Origin: Myxococcota bacterium
GTDB lineage: Bacteria > Myxococcota_A > SURF-8
Assembly (NCBI GenBank): GCA_963674735.2
Contig: CAXXQS010000001.1
Coordinates: 1,312,001-1,376,000 of the forward strand
Direction: 5' to 3'
Length of the DNA: 64,000 bases
The translations under genes and the position numbers were made by a program. The notes under the pieces are model-generated. The model ran no database searches, had not been told where the DNA came from, and saw only the letters and a program-made list of their open reading frames with translations. Shown piece after piece: positions 48,836 through 58,233 of the stretch. Positions within the stretch are counted from its first letter, which is position 1. The number at the start of each line of letters is the position of its first letter.

Positions 48836-49504
48836 CTACTTGTAGCTCTTCATGTCCAACTTGAACAAATACTCGATACCGTCCGGCGTTTTCTCGAAGC
48901 TGGCGTAGAAACGACCCGTGACCGTCATGGTGATAACGCTGCGGTAAAGCAGCTCACGATCGACCTGCAGGGCTTCATCGGTCGACTCGATGTAGATCAG
49001 GTCAGCGAGGGTAGGGGGATTGCAGAAAACGCAGCCCGCCATGACCACCGAGGGATTGCACAACCAGAAGCGTGTCATTTTGCCGTCTTTTCCGGGAGAA
49101 TCGATCGGCATGATCGCACCGGTGATGGTCACCGCCGCTCCGTGGATGCGCGGGAGTCCCTGCTCAAAAAATGTTTTATGAATTTTGTAGTATTGATAAT
49201 TGAGAGTGAGGTTGCGAAACGTCAACGTCTTCGGATTTTTCCAGTCCGGTTCCAGTAATTTTAGCGTTTGCTGCGGTTTATCGACATGCCCGCGAGCACG
49301 TAAGACGGCATCGGTTCCATGCTTTTTCACGCGTGTTTCGAATGCATCGGCCGGAGGATTCAGAGACCGGGAGTCGTTTTGATTGATAAAAAGACTGAGG
49401 CTGTTCGAAAACGGATTTGCATAGGCCGCAACCGACTGACAGAGAAACAAAACGACAAAGACCGTGAGCGTTGAAAGGGGAATCGACAAGCGGGAGTCCG
49501 GCAT
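48836..49504 (-). CDS. DUF3299-like exported protein
   Basis: Signal peptide; HGAAVTITGAIMP; AGCVFCNPP. Confidence 0.65.
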   Translation of the reverse strand: MPDSRLSIPLSTLTVFVVLFLCQSVAAYANPFSNSLSLFINQNDSRSLNPPADAFETRVKKHGTDAVLRARGHVDKPQQTLKLLEPDWKNPKTLTFRNLTLNYQYYKIHKTFFEQGLPRIHGAAVTITGAIMPIDSPGKDGKMTRFWLCNPSVVMAGCVFCNPPTLADLIYIESTDEALQVDRELLYRSVITMTVTGRFYASFEKTPDGIEYLFKLDMKSYK

Positions 49505-49704
49505 TTTCAGGTAATCCTTTCTGGAAACGGCGATGATCCGACATGATTGGTAACATGTCATTCTCGCGAAGTATTCCGCGAGCGGTCGGCATTATAGGTC
49601 TCGGAATGGCTGTATGCAAGTGGGTTATCGATAAAATCACGACGATTGAGTTTGACGAATCGGGTTTCGAGCCGCAATATAACAGTCGTGAAAGCGAGGC
49701 ATGT

Positions 49705-51003
49705 ATGAATCGAACGCGGCGCGTCGCCAAATCTGTATCCTATAGGAATTACGAGGATTTCGCCGTTGTCATCGAGCATCGGAGCGGCAAAACCTTACGC
49801 TTGAATCGCAGTGGGGGGAACTTGCTGGAGCGAGTCGAGAGGAGGGAGACCATCGATGACCCGGATGAACTCGACTTTCTCGCCGATCTCTCACGACTCG
49901 GTATTATTGAGGATGGTCGCGTTAAACCTAGCGCGCATACGGATCGACGCTCTCCCGATAATGAAGAAAATGAGCCGAAAATTCTGCGCGAGTTGCGCGA
50001 TTACGCGTCTCAACGACTGATACCGATTCAGGCACAAATCGAGTTGACCTACCGCTGCCCGCTGAATTGTCAGCATTGTTACCTAAAAGGAGAGCGTCGC
50101 GAACGAGCGGAAGAGCTATCGACGGATGAAACAAAGGCCTTTCTCGATGACTTCTCCGAAATGGGCGGCTTGTTCGTTGTTTTCACCGGCGGGGAACCCT
50201 TTCTGCGGAACGACCTCTCGGAGATATTCCAACATGCACGGAAACGCCGGCTGGCGGTATCGATTCTAACATCCGGGAACGGCATTCAAAACGGATTGAT
50301 CGAGGAAATGGCGGCTTGGGGTATCGATTCGGCCCAGGTCTCGCTTCATGCACCGGACGCGGAAGATCACGACCGTTTCACCGGTTTGGCGGGCTCTTTC
50401 GACAATGCCTGGAAAACACTGCTCACATTTCGTGACAACGGGGTTCCGGTGCGAGCGGCCATCAGCGTAAATAAACTGAACGTCGCCCGGATCGGCGAAC
50501 TGGTCAGCCAGCTTCAGGATCGACAGATTCCATACAATTTCAATCTGAACATGTTGCCATGCCGCAACGGCGATTTTCATCCGCGCGATCTTCAGATCGA
50601 GGAGAAGGAGCTTTCCGCGATAATCGAGCGTTTCGGGGGGCGCGGGACTCCCAGAATGAAGGAGCTTCGAGCAGACGATCCGCCCTGCACGGCTGGAAGA
50701 GGCATTGTTTCAGTCGATCCTTATGGAAATATCTATCCGTGTTTGATGTGGCGTCAGCCGAAAGGAAACCTGAAACAACGTTCGTTCGAGACGATCTGGA
50801 ATGACGTCCACGTTTGGGAGGAGGTTCGGTCCCTGACTTTGCAGGATGTGGATGATTGCCTGGAATGCGAACGGCGACCGTTTTGCAATCGCTGCACCGG
50901 TTTAGCGCTGATGGAAAATCTATCGATGAAAAGCCATTCCGCACTTGACTGCCGCCAAGCGGGTGTGCTAGAGTCTATAACTAGTAAAAAGACGGAAAGG
51001 TAG
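49705..51003 (+). CDS. Radical SAM/SPASM peptide maturase with N-terminal PqqD/RRE-like domain
   Basis: LRLNRSG...FLADLSRLGII (PqqD-like); CPLNCQHC; FTGGEP; SPASM CTAG..DPYGNIYPC..CLEC..FCNRC..C. Confidence 0.9.
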   Translation: MNRTRRVAKSVSYRNYEDFAVVIEHRSGKTLRLNRSGGNLLERVERRETIDDPDELDFLADLSRLGIIEDGRVKPSAHTDRRSPDNEENEPKILRELRDYASQRLIPIQAQIELTYRCPLNCQHCYLKGERRERAEELSTDETKAFLDDFSEMGGLFVVFTGGEPFLRNDLSEIFQHARKRRLAVSILTSGNGIQNGLIEEMAAWGIDSAQVSLHAPDAEDHDRFTGLAGSFDNAWKTLLTFRDNGVPVRAAISVNKLNVARIGELVSQLQDRQIPYNFNLNMLPCRNGDFHPRDLQIEEKELSAIIERFGGRGTPRMKELRADDPPCTAGRGIVSVDPYGNIYPCLMWRQPKGNLKQRSFETIWNDVHVWEEVRSLTLQDVDDCLECERRPFCNRCTGLALMENLSMKSHSALDCRQAGVLESITSKKTER

Positions 51004-51011
51004 GTAGCTCG

Positions 51012-51104
51012 ATGGATAAACCCGTTATTGAAACTGTTGAAACCACGCAAACCACCGATACCACGGACGATTGCCAGTACTGCGCCGGAAAGACACTCTG
51101 CTGA
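51012..51104 (+). CDS. Putative RiPP precursor peptide, 30 aa (not in the ORF track)
   Basis: MDKPVIETVETTQTTDTTDDCQYCAGKTLC*; ATG 8 nt after the rSAM stop with aaggtaggt RBS; fills the intergenic gap. Confidence 0.75.
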   Translation: MDKPVIETVETTQTTDTTDDCQYCAGKTLC

Positions 51105-51114
51105 ACGCTTGCCT

Positions 51115-52086
51115 TTAATCCCACGCGCGCTGAATGGTCAGTTCCGGCAAGGCGGCCTGTAGCGCATCCACTTCGACTTGATCGATAGTAACTTCGATCA
51201 GGGTCAACTTTTTAAGCTTCGATTTGTCGTGCAGGGGTTTGAGGGACTTGACCTGAGTTTTCGTCAGGTCGAGTTCTTCGAGCATCGGCATGCCGTCAAG
51301 CAGGGATAAATCTTGAATGGGAACACCCCAAAGCTTCAAGATGGTCAGATTTTTGAACTTCAGCAGCTGATTCAAGTCATCGATCGGGTCATTGCACAAA
51401 TCCAGATACGTAATACGGTCCGCCACAGAGAATAGGGGTGTGAGATCGCGAACTTGCGTACTGCACACCTGGATCTCCGTGATTTTGGGCAGATCGGCAA
51501 GAACTTGTACATCGGAAACGCTCGTGCGCAGAAGATCGATGCGTTCAAGCTGCGTCATGTCGGCAATGGGCGTAATATCCGCAATGCGGCTCATCTTGGC
51601 GTCGATTTCGGTGAGTTTTGGTAGCGTGGCGATGGGGGTCAGGTCGGCGACGGCCGTGCCCCAGATGTTCAGATATTCAAGATTGATCAGGTTTTTGAGC
51701 GGGGTTAGGTCTTGCAAGTGCGGATTGAAACGCAGGTCCAGTCGGCGCAGATTCGTAAGACCGGAAAGACCACGCAGATCTGTTATCCCGGCGAAAGCCA
51801 GTAGCACCGATTCGAGGTGGGTGCACTGTGGGAGAACCGACAGATCAGCCTCCTTCATGGTTTGGGCGGCTTGTCCGAACCACAATTCGCCTTCTTCCGG
51901 ATGCGCTTCCCACCAGCTTTTCCAATCGCCGTCGCCCCAGGGAGGCATGAAAACCCGGCAGGCCTCCACGATTTCAGGAGAAGGAGCGGGAACGGGTTCG
52001 GGGTCGGGTTTCGGAATGGTATGGCTGCAGGCCATGGAAACGAGAAGAATAGCGGCAAGAAGAGCGAAAGAAAACAGGCGCGGCAT
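51115..52086 (-). CDS. Internalin-like leucine-rich-repeat lipoprotein
   Basis: SMAC lipobox; ~22-aa repeats DLTPLxxLxNLxxLxL. Confidence 0.88.
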   Translation of the reverse strand: MPRLFSFALLAAILLVSMACSHTIPKPDPEPVPAPSPEIVEACRVFMPPWGDGDWKSWWEAHPEEGELWFGQAAQTMKEADLSVLPQCTHLESVLLAFAGITDLRGLSGLTNLRRLDLRFNPHLQDLTPLKNLINLEYLNIWGTAVADLTPIATLPKLTEIDAKMSRIADITPIADMTQLERIDLLRTSVSDVQVLADLPKITEIQVCSTQVRDLTPLFSVADRITYLDLCNDPIDDLNQLLKFKNLTILKLWGVPIQDLSLLDGMPMLEELDLTKTQVKSLKPLHDKSKLKKLTLIEVTIDQVEVDALQAALPELTIQRAWD

Positions 52087-52188
52087 GACGACTCCCTCGG
52101 TTCGATTGACAAACACGCGCATGATAGCACAGTCTGTACGACTTGACTACAGGTGTGACCCGTAATCCTGCCATGGCGTTGTGTGAGA

Positions 52189-52217
52189 TTGACCCGAAAC
52201 CGTTTGGAGGGCATAAT
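52189..52217 (+). promoter_or_regulatory. Sigma70 promoter
   Basis: TTGACC-17-CATAAT. Confidence 0.55.
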
Positions 52218-52241
52218 GCGCATGAAATGGAGGCGAGCGGT

Positions 52242-52745
52242 ATGACGACCACGGACGAACGCATTATTCGACAAGGCATTGTTCGACAAACCTATTCGAA
52301 CGGAACCGCCGATGTTGCGCTGCCTCGGCGCGGGGCTTGCGAAAACTGCAGCGAAAAGGGGCTTTGCTTCGGAGTCGGGGAAGACGAGCCGCAGTTTGTT
52401 CGGGTGACGAATCCCATGGGAGCGATACCCGGTGCACGCGTAGCGGTGGGATATCCGAGCGGATCCTTTTTGCGCGCGTCGCTGACCGTCTATCTCTTGC
52501 CGCTGATCGGCTTGCTGGCTGGGGCCGTTATTGGAACACTGGCAATGGGCGACACGTCACAGGTTCCGGCGATAGCGGGGGCTGGACTCGGCTTCGTATC
52601 GGCCCTGGGGATGAGCGTCGCAATGGATCGCCGAGCGCGCCGGAATCCGCGTTACATTCCCGAAATCGTAGAGGTGAATATCGCTGCATTGGCCTGCACG
52701 CTCGACCTGGAATCCGGCCAATCCGATCATTCGGTCAAGATATGA
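52242..52745 (+). CDS. RseC/MucC family membrane protein
   Basis: ACENCSEKGLC, NPMGAIPGARV, VYLLPL, two TM helices, PEIV. Confidence 0.88.
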   Translation: MTTTDERIIRQGIVRQTYSNGTADVALPRRGACENCSEKGLCFGVGEDEPQFVRVTNPMGAIPGARVAVGYPSGSFLRASLTVYLLPLIGLLAGAVIGTLAMGDTSQVPAIAGAGLGFVSALGMSVAMDRRARRNPRYIPEIVEVNIAALACTLDLESGQSDHSVKI

Positions 52746-56280: not shown

Positions 56281-58233
56281 TCAATCGTCGGGGGTAATTT
56301 TGAATTTGGAAAGTTTCGCCATGAAGGCTTGACGCGAAATCCCAAGAATCTGAGCCGTTTTCGACCGATTCCAGTTGTTATTCTCAAGTGCCCGCCGAAT
56401 GACCCTGATTTCATAAGCGTCGAGGACTTCTTTCAAGCTTCGGCCGTTGAATACGATTTTTTCTTCTTTACCATTGACTCCGGGCTTGGAAATCATCGGC
56501 GAAAAATGCCGGATTTCGATGGGTTCATTGGGCTCGACCATCAAAAGAGCTCGTTGAATCTCGTTTTTTAAATGGCGAACGTTTCCGGGGAAGGGGCTAC
56601 GGCGCAATTCCTGTATGCAACTCGGTGAAAAGTCGTTCCCGTATTTTTTTGTCTCGCGTTGGTACATACGCAGAAAATGTCGCGCCAGCAATTCGATGTC
56701 GTCGGGACGCTCGCGTAGCGGAGGGAGACTGATGGGAAAGGTGTTGATGCGATAATACAGATCCTCGCGGAAGCGTCCCGCCGCAACTTCTTCTTCGAGA
56801 TTTTTGTTCGTGGCGCAGATTACTCGCACGTTGACTTTGCGAGGTTGCGTGGCTCCCACGGCCATTACCTCGCCCTCTTGAAGCGCACGCAACAATTTGA
56901 CCTGAAGGTGGAAGGGGGTTTCGCCTATTTCATCCAGGAAAAGAGTGCCTCCGTCCGCCACTTCGAAAAGCCCTTTCTTGTTGTCGATCGCACCGGTAAA
57001 GGCCCCTTTGACATGGCCGAACAACTCGCTTTCCAACAATGTATCCGAAAAGGTTCCGCAATTGACGGCGGCAAAAATCGCCCCGCTGCGTTTCGATTGT
57101 TTGTGAATCGATTGGGCGACTACTTCTTTGCCCGTACCCGTATCGCCAAGAATCATCACCGTCAACTCGGAAGGCCCGACGGTTTCAATCTGCCGGCGCA
57201 CGGACTGCATGGCGTTCGAGTTTCCGATCAGACGTCGATCGTCCTCGGTTTGCCTAATCATGGATTTCAGATACACATTTTCGTTCTTCAGTTTCTCTTC
57301 CGCTTCTCTTACGACCTCGATCAGACGAAGGTTGACGACACGGGCTGAAAAAACATAGGTGATCAGCGAAACGAGATCCAAATCGTGCTCGTTTAAAGCG
57401 ATGGAATGAGATGTATTTCCGATTTCGACGAAACCGATGACACGCTCCTGCTGGATAAGAGGAGAAAGAATCATGGTTCGTAGGGGTTTGGCAGCCTGAC
57501 CGGCGACGCGCAGCCCGACAATCTGTTCCGCATCAAGCAGCAAAGCCCGGCGTTGGGTCCAGCCTTCATCAAACCAGACATCCGCGCGGGTGAGGTCCGC
57601 CGAAATATCTTTGGTTTTGCTTGTAAAGTAAACCTGTCGCCATTTGCTATCGATGGTTGTTTCTTCCCGATGCAGGGCCACATATTCGGCGTTGGGAACG
57701 TGGTTGAGCAGAAAGAGGGCGACATGTTGGTAAATGTCTTGTGCCTTGTCGCGTTCGTGGATTTCTTTCTGAAAGCGGAACAATGAGCGCACCAAGGATT
57801 TATCATCGAGAATCTGTTGAGAAAGCAGCGAGAAATCCGAGATCGCGCGAGAAGCTAAAATCGTCTTTCCACTTTCGTCTTTGGATTCGCCCTCCGCTTC
57901 CCCCTCGAAAAGCCGGACATGTATGCGCGTTGGAGATTGGATATCACCCAGAAGTAGCGAGTCGCCATCCCGGATTTCGCGTTCTTTGAACTTGATGCCG
58001 TCCACAACGAATTGTTCGCCATCGACTTCCACCATCGAGCCGTTCGTGCTCTGCAGATCCTGATAAAAATATCGACCGTCCCGGAAGACCAACTGCCCAT
58101 GCAAACTCGAAACGCGCGGGTCGTGAAGAAAAAAATCGTTCGAAACGGCGCGCCCGATCAAGATGTGATCCTTCGAATAGGTTCGTTGAATCGTTTCACC
58201 ATCGATTTCAGCTATCAATTCGACTAGCCACAT
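56281..58233 (-). CDS. Sigma54-dependent activator, FHA-GAF-AAA+-HTH
   Basis: IGRA..VSSLH..DLQSTNG; GDTGTGKE; GAFTGA; LDEIGE; REDLYYR; PGNVR; C-terminal HTH. Confidence 0.95.
   Translation of the reverse strand: MWLVELIAEIDGETIQRTYSKDHILIGRAVSNDFFLHDPRVSSLHGQLVFRDGRYFYQDLQSTNGSMVEVDGEQFVVDGIKFKEREIRDGDSLLLGDIQSPTRIHVRLFEGEAEGESKDESGKTILASRAISDFSLLSQQILDDKSLVRSLFRFQKEIHERDKAQDIYQHVALFLLNHVPNAEYVALHREETTIDSKWRQVYFTSKTKDISADLTRADVWFDEGWTQRRALLLDAEQIVGLRVAGQAAKPLRTMILSPLIQQERVIGFVEIGNTSHSIALNEHDLDLVSLITYVFSARVVNLRLIEVVREAEEKLKNENVYLKSMIRQTEDDRRLIGNSNAMQSVRRQIETVGPSELTVMILGDTGTGKEVVAQSIHKQSKRSGAIFAAVNCGTFSDTLLESELFGHVKGAFTGAIDNKKGLFEVADGGTLFLDEIGETPFHLQVKLLRALQEGEVMAVGATQPRKVNVRVICATNKNLEEEVAAGRFREDLYYRINTFPISLPPLRERPDDIELLARHFLRMYQRETKKYGNDFSPSCIQELRRSPFPGNVRHLKNEIQRALLMVEPNEPIEIRHFSPMISKPGVNGKEEKIVFNGRSLKEVLDAYEIRVIRRALENNNWNRSKTAQILGISRQAFMAKLSKFKITPDD

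Follow-up and report, generated by a model that had tools for sequence, protein, structure and literature searches.

Several pathways for peptides that are made by the ribosome and modified after translation (RiPPs) rely on radical S-adenosylmethionine (SAM) enzymes with a SPASM domain. In the sactipeptide-type systems CteB/thermocellin, AlbA/subtilosin, SkfB and StsB, a RiPP recognition element (RRE), the radical-SAM core and the SPASM domain follow each other in the enzyme, and a short peptide substrate with a cysteine core is encoded next to it. In the pyrroloquinoline quinone (PQQ; PqqA/D/E) and mycofactocin (MftA/B/C) pathways, the radical-SAM/SPASM enzyme is directed by an RRE to a very short precursor whose C-terminal core is strictly conserved, and the products serve other proteins instead of being antibiotics. 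Enzymes of the SuiB type are reported to form Trp-Arg and related links (PMC11851443). Here we describe a locus that shares the domain order and the adjacent short Cys-core peptide of the first of these groups. It is located in a stretch of 64,000 nucleotides (nt) of a Myxococcota bacterium (assembly GCA_963674735.2, contig CAXXQS010000001.1, positions 1,312,001 to 1,376,000 of the forward strand), hereafter called the window. A first-pass annotation of the window had described the locus as a minimal two-gene RiPP system, consisting of an RRE-fused radical-SAM/SPASM maturase and a 30-residue precursor. Our analysis adds the gene of a leucine-rich repeat (LRR) lipoprotein. We consider it probable that the three genes form a module in which the peptide is matured by the adjacent enzyme, the cross-linked product works together with the LRR lipoprotein, and further precursors carried by phages are matured by the host. 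The locus most likely represents a new RiPP family: the class of the enzyme is familiar, while the precursor family is undescribed, the conserved partner is unusual, and copies of the precursor are borne by phages.

The precursor peptide and its predicted RRE-fused maturase

The peptide is encoded at 51012..51104 (+) by an open reading frame (ORF) of 30 codons, which begins 8 nt past the TAG stop codon of the enzyme ORF, as read directly from the DNA. Its translation, MDKPVIETVETTQTTDTTDDCQYCAGKTLC, is exactly the one written down in the first-pass annotation. The ribosome-binding site claimed there corresponds to the purine-rich stretch GGAAAGGTAGG (50994..51004, +; read from the sequence), which ends 7 nt before the peptide ATG. 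In the product, the leader M-D-K-P-V-I-E-T-V-E is followed by a hydrophilic spacer, and the extreme C-terminus is formed by the core D-D-C-Q-Y-C-A-G-K-T-L-C. The gene is present as a single copy in its own genome.

Conservation was assessed at 15 orthologous enzyme genes that were reached via the enzyme alone, namely the gene of the window, those of L002-L009 (species genomes) and those of L135-L139 and L141 (related genomes); L134 repeats L002, and L140 repeats L006. Within about 150 nt downstream of 11 of these 15 genes, a canonical short ORF ending in C-x-Y-C-x-G-(K/R)-x-x-C-stop was found, for example MDTPTIEIIETIENDTNGDDCQYCAGKSLC in L002, MTKKPVIVKKETAKPTTTTDQCQYCTGKRIC in L004 and METNQSLPVIEIVEDVDVETNGDDCQYCAGKRHC in L137. 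Variant peptides follow two more of them, ending in ...NNNMCQYMVGRPFC (L135) and ...PNTCRACAGSPFC (L008). Short ORFs downstream of maturase homologues, which had been named as a check on the original proposal, are thus present, and judged from these sequences the short ORF is a conserved partner beside the homologous enzymes. In L005, only a doubtful ORF lies beyond the enzyme gene; it ends in CGCSLVF and is probably spurious, and the canonical peptide of that genome is encoded on another contig (L153), where it adjoins an LRR gene instead. Of the three core Cys, the first and the last are invariant. They are constant in the 12 typical cores together with Tyr, Gly and Lys/Arg; position 2 varies (Q, A or L), as do positions 8 and 9, and the middle Cys is retained in 11 of the 12, being replaced by Met in L135. 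The codons of conserved residues vary synonymously between genomes (TGC/TGT, TAC/TAT, GGA/GGT/GGC/GGG, AAG/AAA/CGT/CGC), as is typical where selection acts on the protein. The Thr/Asp-rich spacer described earlier is a feature of the window genome and its near kin; in the other sequences of the peptide alignment A2 (24 sequences), the spacer is rich in Asn, Ser, Thr and Lys.

With 30 codons, the ORF is below the usual gene-calling limits, and a profile search of 1.84 billion representative proteins with the peptide gave only 11 matches at E ≤ 0.001, of which 8 were short peptides of the family. Both facts would suit a chance frame in the spacer between convergent genes. The conservation data refute such a reading, to which we assign next to no probability: frame, length, start region and C-terminal stop are conserved across phyla with synonymous changes, a purine-rich stretch is positioned upstream, and a search from the peptide side, described below, independently recovers the enzyme and LRR flanks in 13 loci. 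Since only 8 representative clusters of the family occur among the 1.84 billion proteins, the peptide gene is almost never annotated. No model of NCBIfam matched the peptide at E ≤ 0.1 and none of Pfam at E ≤ 1; the peptide together with its relatives from L002, L004 and L008 gave no NCBIfam family at E ≤ 1, and PHROGs contained no family at a meaningful level. Neither a PqqA-type nor an MftA-type precursor was recognized with NCBIfam and Pfam, and neither SCIFF, whose model the NCBIfam library presumably contains, nor any other curated NCBIfam precursor model matched. The unlikeness to known precursors that the first-pass annotation had pointed out was thus confirmed. In the full-text literature, with subscription journals outside its coverage, we found no description of the peptide family or its motif, no connection of a radical-SAM RiPP with an LRR protein, and no phage-borne precursors of such kind.

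The maturase gene (P0001) is located at 49705..51003 (+) and encodes 432 amino acids (aa) from the ATG at 49705, which fits the N-termini of the orthologues; further in-frame starts are present at 49543 and 49606. Pfam searches identified the domains Radical_SAM (PF04055, E 5.4e-21) and SPASM (PF13186, E 5.9e-07, 30.1 bits versus a cut-off of 21.5), the latter spanning residues 382-442 of the 486-aa frame. When 5.8 billion proteins were searched, 318 matches at E ≤ 0.001 were obtained. Among these, 26 full-length or near-full-length sequences besides the window's P0003 form a distinct group (P0004-P0029; 35-50% identity, E 1e-133 to 5e-81), and most of them extend over the N-terminal domain, too. 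For alignment A1, the window enzyme and 25 relatives were used (26 sequences), leaving out the shortest, P0007 (347 aa). The CX3CX2C motif for the radical-SAM [4Fe-4S] cluster (C118/C122/C125 in YRCPLNCQHCY; 50056..50079, +) is invariant in A1, as are the seven Cys and G341 of the SPASM set C328-x12-G341-x4-C346, C385-x2-C388-x5-C394-x2-C397 and C416 (50686..50952, +). The last spacing of the SPASM motif is known as Cx3C; the enzyme here has Cx2C.

In total, 82 NCBIfam models matched the enzyme, all of them far below their curated cut-offs: PqqE (TIGR02109) with 111.9 bits versus 381.35, MftC (TIGR03962) with 102.7 versus 265, AlbA (NF012164) with 93.4 versus 850, StsB (NF045574) with 98.5 versus 625, and WgkB (NF050035) with 98.4 versus 650. 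By these scores, the enzyme is not a member of the curated AlbA, StsB, WgkB, PqqE or MftC families. The alignments that cover the radical-SAM and SPASM parts together include those to the sactipeptide maturases StsB and AlbA. An AlphaFold2 model based on A1 reached a predicted local distance difference test score (pLDDT) of 90.5 and a predicted template modelling (TM) score of 0.91. Foldseek placed SuiB first (E 4.8e-19), followed by CteB, SkfB, BlsE, PqqE and TigE. With VIA-align, the highest Z scores were obtained for CteB (25.3; root-mean-square deviation (rmsd) 3.5, 306 residues aligned), SuiB (24.4, across model residues 5-417) and SkfB (24.3), with ChlB (23.8) and the anaerobic sulfatase-maturating enzyme anSME (23.7) ranking lower. 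The high structural likeness to SuiB reflects the shared fold and not family membership. Structural matches to viperin, MoaA, anSME and others were dropped as functional leads, as they go back to the shared radical-SAM core; also, the PADLOC defence models gave only a generic radical-SAM likeness of the enzyme to viperins (E 3.9e-16).

The leader-binding domain was assigned by fold match to residues about 1-72 (49705..49920, +), the Pfam PqqD sequence match being weak (E 0.027, 15.3 bits versus a cut-off of 23.4). Folded alone from an 18-row alignment, the N-terminal domain reached a pLDDT of 81.5, with strands at residues 11-15, 19-24 and 29-34 and helices at 35-45 and 53-64. The top Foldseek match of this lone domain was TbiB1 with bound leader (E 4.8e-4, TM scores 0.62/0.65, rmsd 2.8 over 83 columns), followed by SuiB, ThcOx, the lasso protein B1 of 6jx3, TigE, the RRE of PbtF and PqqD (5sxy), so that almost all matches were RREs. 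As modelled, the N-terminal domain has the RRE fold. Together with the Pfam domains and the invariant Cys in A1, it bears out the earlier assignment as an RRE-fused radical-SAM/SPASM enzyme.

The enzyme was modelled in complex with the peptide, together with SAM and three clusters, in three runs and three controls. The enzyme-peptide complex scored 0.88 in each run and 0.02 in the best control; the mark set for this score is attained by 116 of 157 solved complexes and by 2 of 215 mismatched pairs. Contact agreement between the runs was at least 83%, and the partner pLDDT was at least 81. The contacts with the least predicted error connect peptide residues 4-10 (PVIETVE) with enzyme residues 30-40, 58 and 62, which are located in strand 3 and in the RRE helices, and the remaining peptide is predicted near the radical-SAM loop (108-111) and the SPASM Cys region (328-336, 346-348, 395 and 397). 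The first-pass annotation had singled out a KPxI start of the leader and suggested modelling the RRE with the peptide; the model agrees with it, the (K)PxI motif being the part predicted to dock on the RRE.

Based on these sequences and models, the 30-aa product of 51012..51104 would be the substrate of the adjacent RRE-fused enzyme. The leader, of the form (K)PxI(x)(K/E), is predicted to join the RRE as an added strand alongside strand 3 and the helices, and the C-terminal core to extend into the cavity that lies between the radical-SAM and SPASM clusters. There, the enzyme would install one or more intramolecular cross-links in the core C-x-Y-C-x-G-(K/R)-x-x-C-COOH. By analogy with the products of CteB, SkfB, AlbA and StsB, Cys-sulfur-to-carbon thioethers would be the more likely outcome, since sactipeptide maturases are the nearest relatives both in structure and in full-length sequence and since neither the first nor the last Cys varies. 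As an alternative, a carbon-carbon link of the SuiB/WgkB/WprB type might connect the invariant Tyr with the invariant Lys/Arg four residues on, which would fit the likeness to SuiB, the tolerated exchange of Lys for Arg and the fact that L135 lacks the middle Cys.

The LRR lipoprotein and the distribution of the three genes

Convergent to the peptide gene lies the gene of the LRR lipoprotein (51115..52122, −; Pfam LRR_4, E 3.2e-25), with a likely start, MPRLFSF..., at 52086. In the protein, a lipobox Cys is followed by a Trp-rich cap in the N-terminal part (C..F.PPWG..W..W) and by repeats of the internalin type. Internalin models of NCBIfam were partly matched, far under their cut-offs (e.g., InlA with 89 bits versus 1600), and a protein atlas search returned generic LRR clusters only. 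Judged by its sequence, the protein shares the repeat type of the internalins without belonging to any of their named families.

The neighbourhoods of 80 loci were compared by tblastn. Orthologues of the LRR protein (39-56% identity) are encoded just past the peptide in L002, L003, L004, L006, L007 and L009, i.e., in six of the eight loci L002-L009. A signal peptide and the lipobox Cys are present at the start of the window protein and of all 12 orthologues in alignment A3, which shows five invariant Cys (lipobox C20, then C43, C88, C208 and C231) and a mean column identity of 60%. When the ORFs of 26 module loci were clustered, the enzyme was found in 25 and the LRR gene in 20 of them, and no other cluster was common to more than 8 of the 26, alternative reading frames of both genes set aside. 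Therefore, the description as a minimal two-gene system had to be given up, as the LRR lipoprotein gene is conserved with the pair. Also, the intracellular cofactor considered in the first-pass annotation has become less likely, because every LRR orthologue examined carries a lipoprotein signal peptide and is thus expected outside the cytoplasm.

The same arrangement was recovered from the peptide side by scanning metagenome DNA for the pattern CQYC-x-G-(K/R and others)-x-(aliphatic)-C-stop. Of the 46 loci obtained, 24 were family-like (an ORF of 28-33 aa whose leader consists of M, 0-3 residues and P-x-I) and comprised 20 distinct sequences; the other 22 were rejected as chance matches located in longer frames or lacking the leader. 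The enzyme gene upstream and the LRR gene downstream were both found in 13 of the 24 (L083, L084, L094, L098, L100, L101, L102, L104, L106, L110, L111, L120 and L121), with L084, L104 and L120 being repeats of L007, L004 and L009, respectively. Two further loci contain the LRR gene only (L090 and L097, the peptide of the latter being at the contig edge), giving 15 of 24 for the LRR gene, and in nine loci neither gene was seen.

Co-occurrence was surveyed in the window's own genome and in 40 relatives, 41 genomes in total. An enzyme orthologue is present in 8 of the 41, which, own genome aside, corresponds to 4 of 5 genomes of the family, 3 of 4 of the remaining order and 0 of 31 of the remaining phylum. 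LRR orthologues were detected in seven genomes, all of them among the eight with the enzyme, and in none of the 33 enzyme-free genomes. The linkage of the genes is variable. In G010, enzyme and peptide genes are about 500 kb apart from the LRR gene, both being retained, and the LRR gene adjoins a homologue of a 241-aa secreted protein also encoded in the window. In the genome of L005 (G043), the peptide gene is convergent to the LRR gene in locus L153, with a disintegrin-domain gene upstream in place of the enzyme gene; this genome has a single orthologous enzyme gene, located on a separate contig. L090 has the same layout, i.e., the peptide by the LRR gene without an adjacent enzyme, with an MBOAT gene upstream. 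In the genome of L008, an LRR orthologue (E 3e-84; L155, G044:C3:14725-15612) is part of a longer open frame of 687 aa, and no canonical peptide was found within 1.5 kb of it. The three genes are kept together in genomes while their order shifts, and this is the pattern of a functional trio.

Precursor genes in phage fragments and interpretation of the module

Orphan peptide genes in fragments of T4-like phages, which the first-pass annotation did not have, came to light in the metagenome loci in which neither the enzyme nor the LRR gene was seen. According to PHROGs, T4-type phage genes flank the peptide in six of these nine loci and in one locus from IMG/VR (L128). The neighbours are a DnaB-like helicase (1e-46) and UvsX (9.9e-46) in L108, UvsX (5.7e-67) in L125, the head closure protein Hc2 (5.9e-43), SSB and a processivity factor (clamp) in L112, a DNA polymerase (2e-26) in L089, a baseplate wedge protein (1.1e-29) in L099, thymidylate kinase and GTP cyclohydrolase in L123, and a tail tube protein (1.8e-19) in L128. 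L092 and L122, with a glycosyltransferase and a glucosaminidase as neighbours, were not placed among the phage loci, nor was L105. These phages are only remotely related to named ones, as their helicase and UvsX share 29-45% identity with those of T4-like cyanophages and a pelagiphage. The phage peptides, e.g., MKPEIIKITSSTAQSVNDCQYCCGKSIC (L112) and MKAKLIKGINNSSQNNNSCQYCCGKQIC (L128), retain length, leader and core, and because the leader is outside the search pattern, it provides independent evidence of kinship. Neither an enzyme nor an LRR gene was found in the examined flanks of the phage loci. When a phage-type peptide was compared by tblastn with the records of 50,697 named phages, nothing matched at E ≤ 10; with 28 residues, such a search has little power. 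The peptide alignment matched 19 stretches in viral contigs, none of which was confirmed by tblastn, for which the peptide is too short, and a second pattern scan of viral contigs returned one site found previously and one chance match in a longer ORF. That L117 and L128, whose contigs have the same length of 38881, might be two copies on one contig was not borne out by blastn, which showed no similarity between the loci.

Peptide genes apart from enzyme genes, as in these phage fragments and beside the LRR genes of L090 and L153, would also be expected if the peptide were an unmodified, Cys-rich metal- or thiol-binding partner of the LRR protein, or autonomous in phages, and the enzyme acted elsewhere, e.g., on the LRR pre-protein in the manner of anSME. 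anSME, which acts on sulfatases, is indeed among the good structural matches (Z 23.7), and C-x-x-C-x-G resembles a zinc-knuckle turn. Yet the enzyme possesses an RRE, which is known to function in leader binding, and the conserved N-terminus of the peptide is predicted to dock precisely there. Even the phage copies retain the leader motif, and this would be difficult to account for if nothing read the leader. Furthermore, the genome of L153 still has one orthologous enzyme gene, and the replacement of the second Cys by Met in L135 weakens the case for a fixed three-Cys metal site. We therefore regard this explanation as very unlikely.

Somewhat less remote, and still unlikely in our judgement, is a bacteriocin with its immunity protein. 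The peptide would then be matured into a sacti- or ranthipeptide-like antimicrobial, the LRR lipoprotein would shield the producer at the membrane, as LanI-type lipoproteins protect lantibiotic producers by binding the compound, and the phage copies would be freed by lysis. The evidence from the enzyme and its RRE would apply equally to such a peptide, a conserved exported lipoprotein adjoins the precursor, and release by lysis would account for the missing exporter. Against it, the core hardly varies between Myxococcota, Spirochaetales metagenome-assembled genomes (MAGs) and phage fragments, and the LRR protein is conserved to the extent seen in A3, whereas bacteriocins usually diversify; this degree of constancy would sooner be expected of a cofactor or of a ligand and its receptor. 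Also, beyond the generic LRR, the protein shows no likeness to immunity families in Pfam and NCBIfam.

The module favoured here would continue from the cross-linked peptide as follows. Neighbourhood and co-occurrence suggest that the product is a ligand, small subunit or cofactor of the LRR lipoprotein in the envelope. The orphan phage precursors would probably be matured by a host enzyme of the family, because both leader and core are kept, and would then enter the same LRR-linked pathway.

Several points weigh against this proposal. Solved RRE-leader complexes exist, so that the complex score of 0.88 may partly express likeness to them, and the alignments used and the ligands riding along in the prediction differ from the calibration of the tool. 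The chemistry of the modification is an inference throughout. In the metagenome set, the invariance of CQYC..G..C was imposed by the pattern, and only the enzyme-anchored set is unbiased in this respect. No downstream peptide was seen at the enzyme gene of L141, and in G004 (86% complete) no LRR orthologue was found despite two enzyme genes, one with the Met-variant peptide and the other without a peptide. The related genomes are kin, and their co-occurrence counts are not independent events. In line with the first-pass annotation, which had noted no adjacent protease or exporter, clustering of the ORFs of the 26 module loci revealed no conserved exporter or leader protease, and with no conserved exporter the route of a cytoplasmic peptide to an exported lipoprotein is unexplained. 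Finally, the enzyme gene was not found in the two IMG/VR phage records, which are fragments (21% and 8% complete), and the phage peptide might act unmodified.

A bolder version of the proposal, which we hold to be rather doubtful, states that the cross-linked peptide is a dedicated ligand or small subunit of the LRR lipoprotein at the surface or in the periplasm, as a bacterial peptide/LRR-receptor pair retained across phyla, and that the precursors of T4-like phages, matured by the host, occupy or trigger the LRR protein. If this were true, the phage copies might mask a receptor against superinfection or mimic a host signal, and a RiPP would be connected with an LRR partner by a new route, with phages supplying substrate to a host RiPP pathway.

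Neighbouring genes and relation to described systems

Upstream of the maturase gene, a divergent gene (48836..49561, −) encodes the 241-aa secreted protein mentioned above, with a signal-peptide-like N-terminus, a Cys-rich stretch and a match to Pfam DUF3299 below the cut-off (E 0.023). Its homologues adjoin the enzyme gene in L002 and L006 and the LRR gene in L145-L148, G010's included, and were not found in the non-Myxococcota loci compared; it may be a lineage-specific fourth component. PADLOC gave no match for this protein, the LRR protein or the peptide. An RseC/MucC-family gene (52143..52745, +; Pfam E 4.8e-26) starts 21 nt past the start of the LRR gene on the opposite strand and was not conserved in the other loci compared. 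On the far side of the LRR gene, a DUF1846 gene is present in L090 (2165..3682) and L153 (34..1482), both without an adjacent enzyme, and a conserved ORF of about 480-500 aa without a Pfam match lies past the LRR gene in L004, L007, L098, L106, L111 and L121. Both probably reflect lineage synteny rather than function.

Regarding expression, a sigma-70-like promoter match, TTGACT-18-TAGAGT with TG (50945..50974, +), is situated upstream of the peptide gene and falls within the enzyme gene's 3′ end. A consensus scan counted four such sites in the region versus 2.1 ± 1.4 in shuffles, which is not significant and a weak lead only. Genes of sigma-54-dependent activators lie just upstream of the module in L094, L111, L121, L003 and L005, which belong to different lineages, and the window encodes an activator with FHA, GAF and AAA+ domains (56281..58233, −) about 5 kb from the module. 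This could be due to sigma-54 control or to chance, AAA+ activators being common; a sigma-54 promoter was sought by eye upstream of the enzyme gene and was not seen.

Another peptide family, of 46-60 aa, follows radical-SAM/SPASM proteins that are more remotely related to the enzyme (25-34% identity, with matches starting only at about residue 75-107) in L012, L013, L014, L019, L022, L023, L024, L025, L029, L033 and L038. These peptides, from Elusimicrobia, Firestonebacteria, Lentisphaerota and other MAGs, have the leader K-K-Y-x-K-P-x-I/V...E-x-I/V-x-E...A-L and Cys-rich cores, and those from L012-L015 had no match in NCBIfam. The KPxI-type leader is common to both peptide families and therefore suggests a wider superfamily of RRE-read leaders. 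A second radical-SAM/SPASM gene in the window's own genome (G000:C2:832216-833280; L150, 2465..3799, +) encodes a protein with 33% identity over residues 78-428; methyltransferase-like ORFs are located upstream of it, and no Cys-rich short ORF was seen downstream.

RRE-guided radical-SAM/SPASM systems are a known kind, though no curated model fits the enzyme, the peptide or the partner. The constant link to an LRR lipoprotein, whether the genes are adjacent or scattered, points to a peptide acting via an envelope protein and not as a free antibiotic. A phage feeding a precursor into a host maturation pathway would, if true, be a new form of phage-host interplay.

Compared with the sactipeptide systems, the precursor is just 28-33 aa long, with a 10-residue core that ends the protein. 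Their usual exporter, protease and immunity genes are not found nearby, the partner being an LRR lipoprotein instead, and the thioether is a prediction here, the enzyme scoring far under the AlbA and StsB cut-offs. With the group of SuiB/streptide, WgkB, RrrB and WprB, the locus shares the best Foldseek match, SuiB, which aligns over the RRE too, and a core with an invariant Tyr and an invariant Lys/Arg four residues apart, a spacing comparable to that of Lys and Trp in streptide. However, the core here bears Cys, the first and last of which are invariant, whereas those systems lack such Cys. The taxa also differ (here Myxococcota, Spirochaetales MAGs and others), and there is no adjacent quorum-sensing regulator. 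The lasso RRE proteins (TbiB1 and B1 of 6jx3) share the leader-binding domain only, their catalytic machinery being unrelated; the Pro of the peptide leader with an aliphatic residue two positions later resembles the lasso leader motif.

Two comparisons concern peptides that serve other proteins. PqqE and MftC are among the NCBIfam matches of the enzyme and PqqD among the fold matches, but in contrast to the PQQ and mycofactocin loci, no PqqB/C/F or MftD/E/F genes are located nearby, and the core sequence is unrelated. In the QhpD/QhpC system, a radical-SAM/SPASM enzyme cross-links the Cys of a small cytoplasmic peptide that later becomes part of a complex outside the cytoplasm. QhpC is larger than the peptide described here, the qhp operon encodes its own protease and ABC exporter, and the partner is a dehydrogenase, whereas our loci have no conserved protease or exporter and the partner is an LRR lipoprotein. 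Nevertheless, QhpD/QhpC is the nearest precedent for a modified peptide serving an exported protein.

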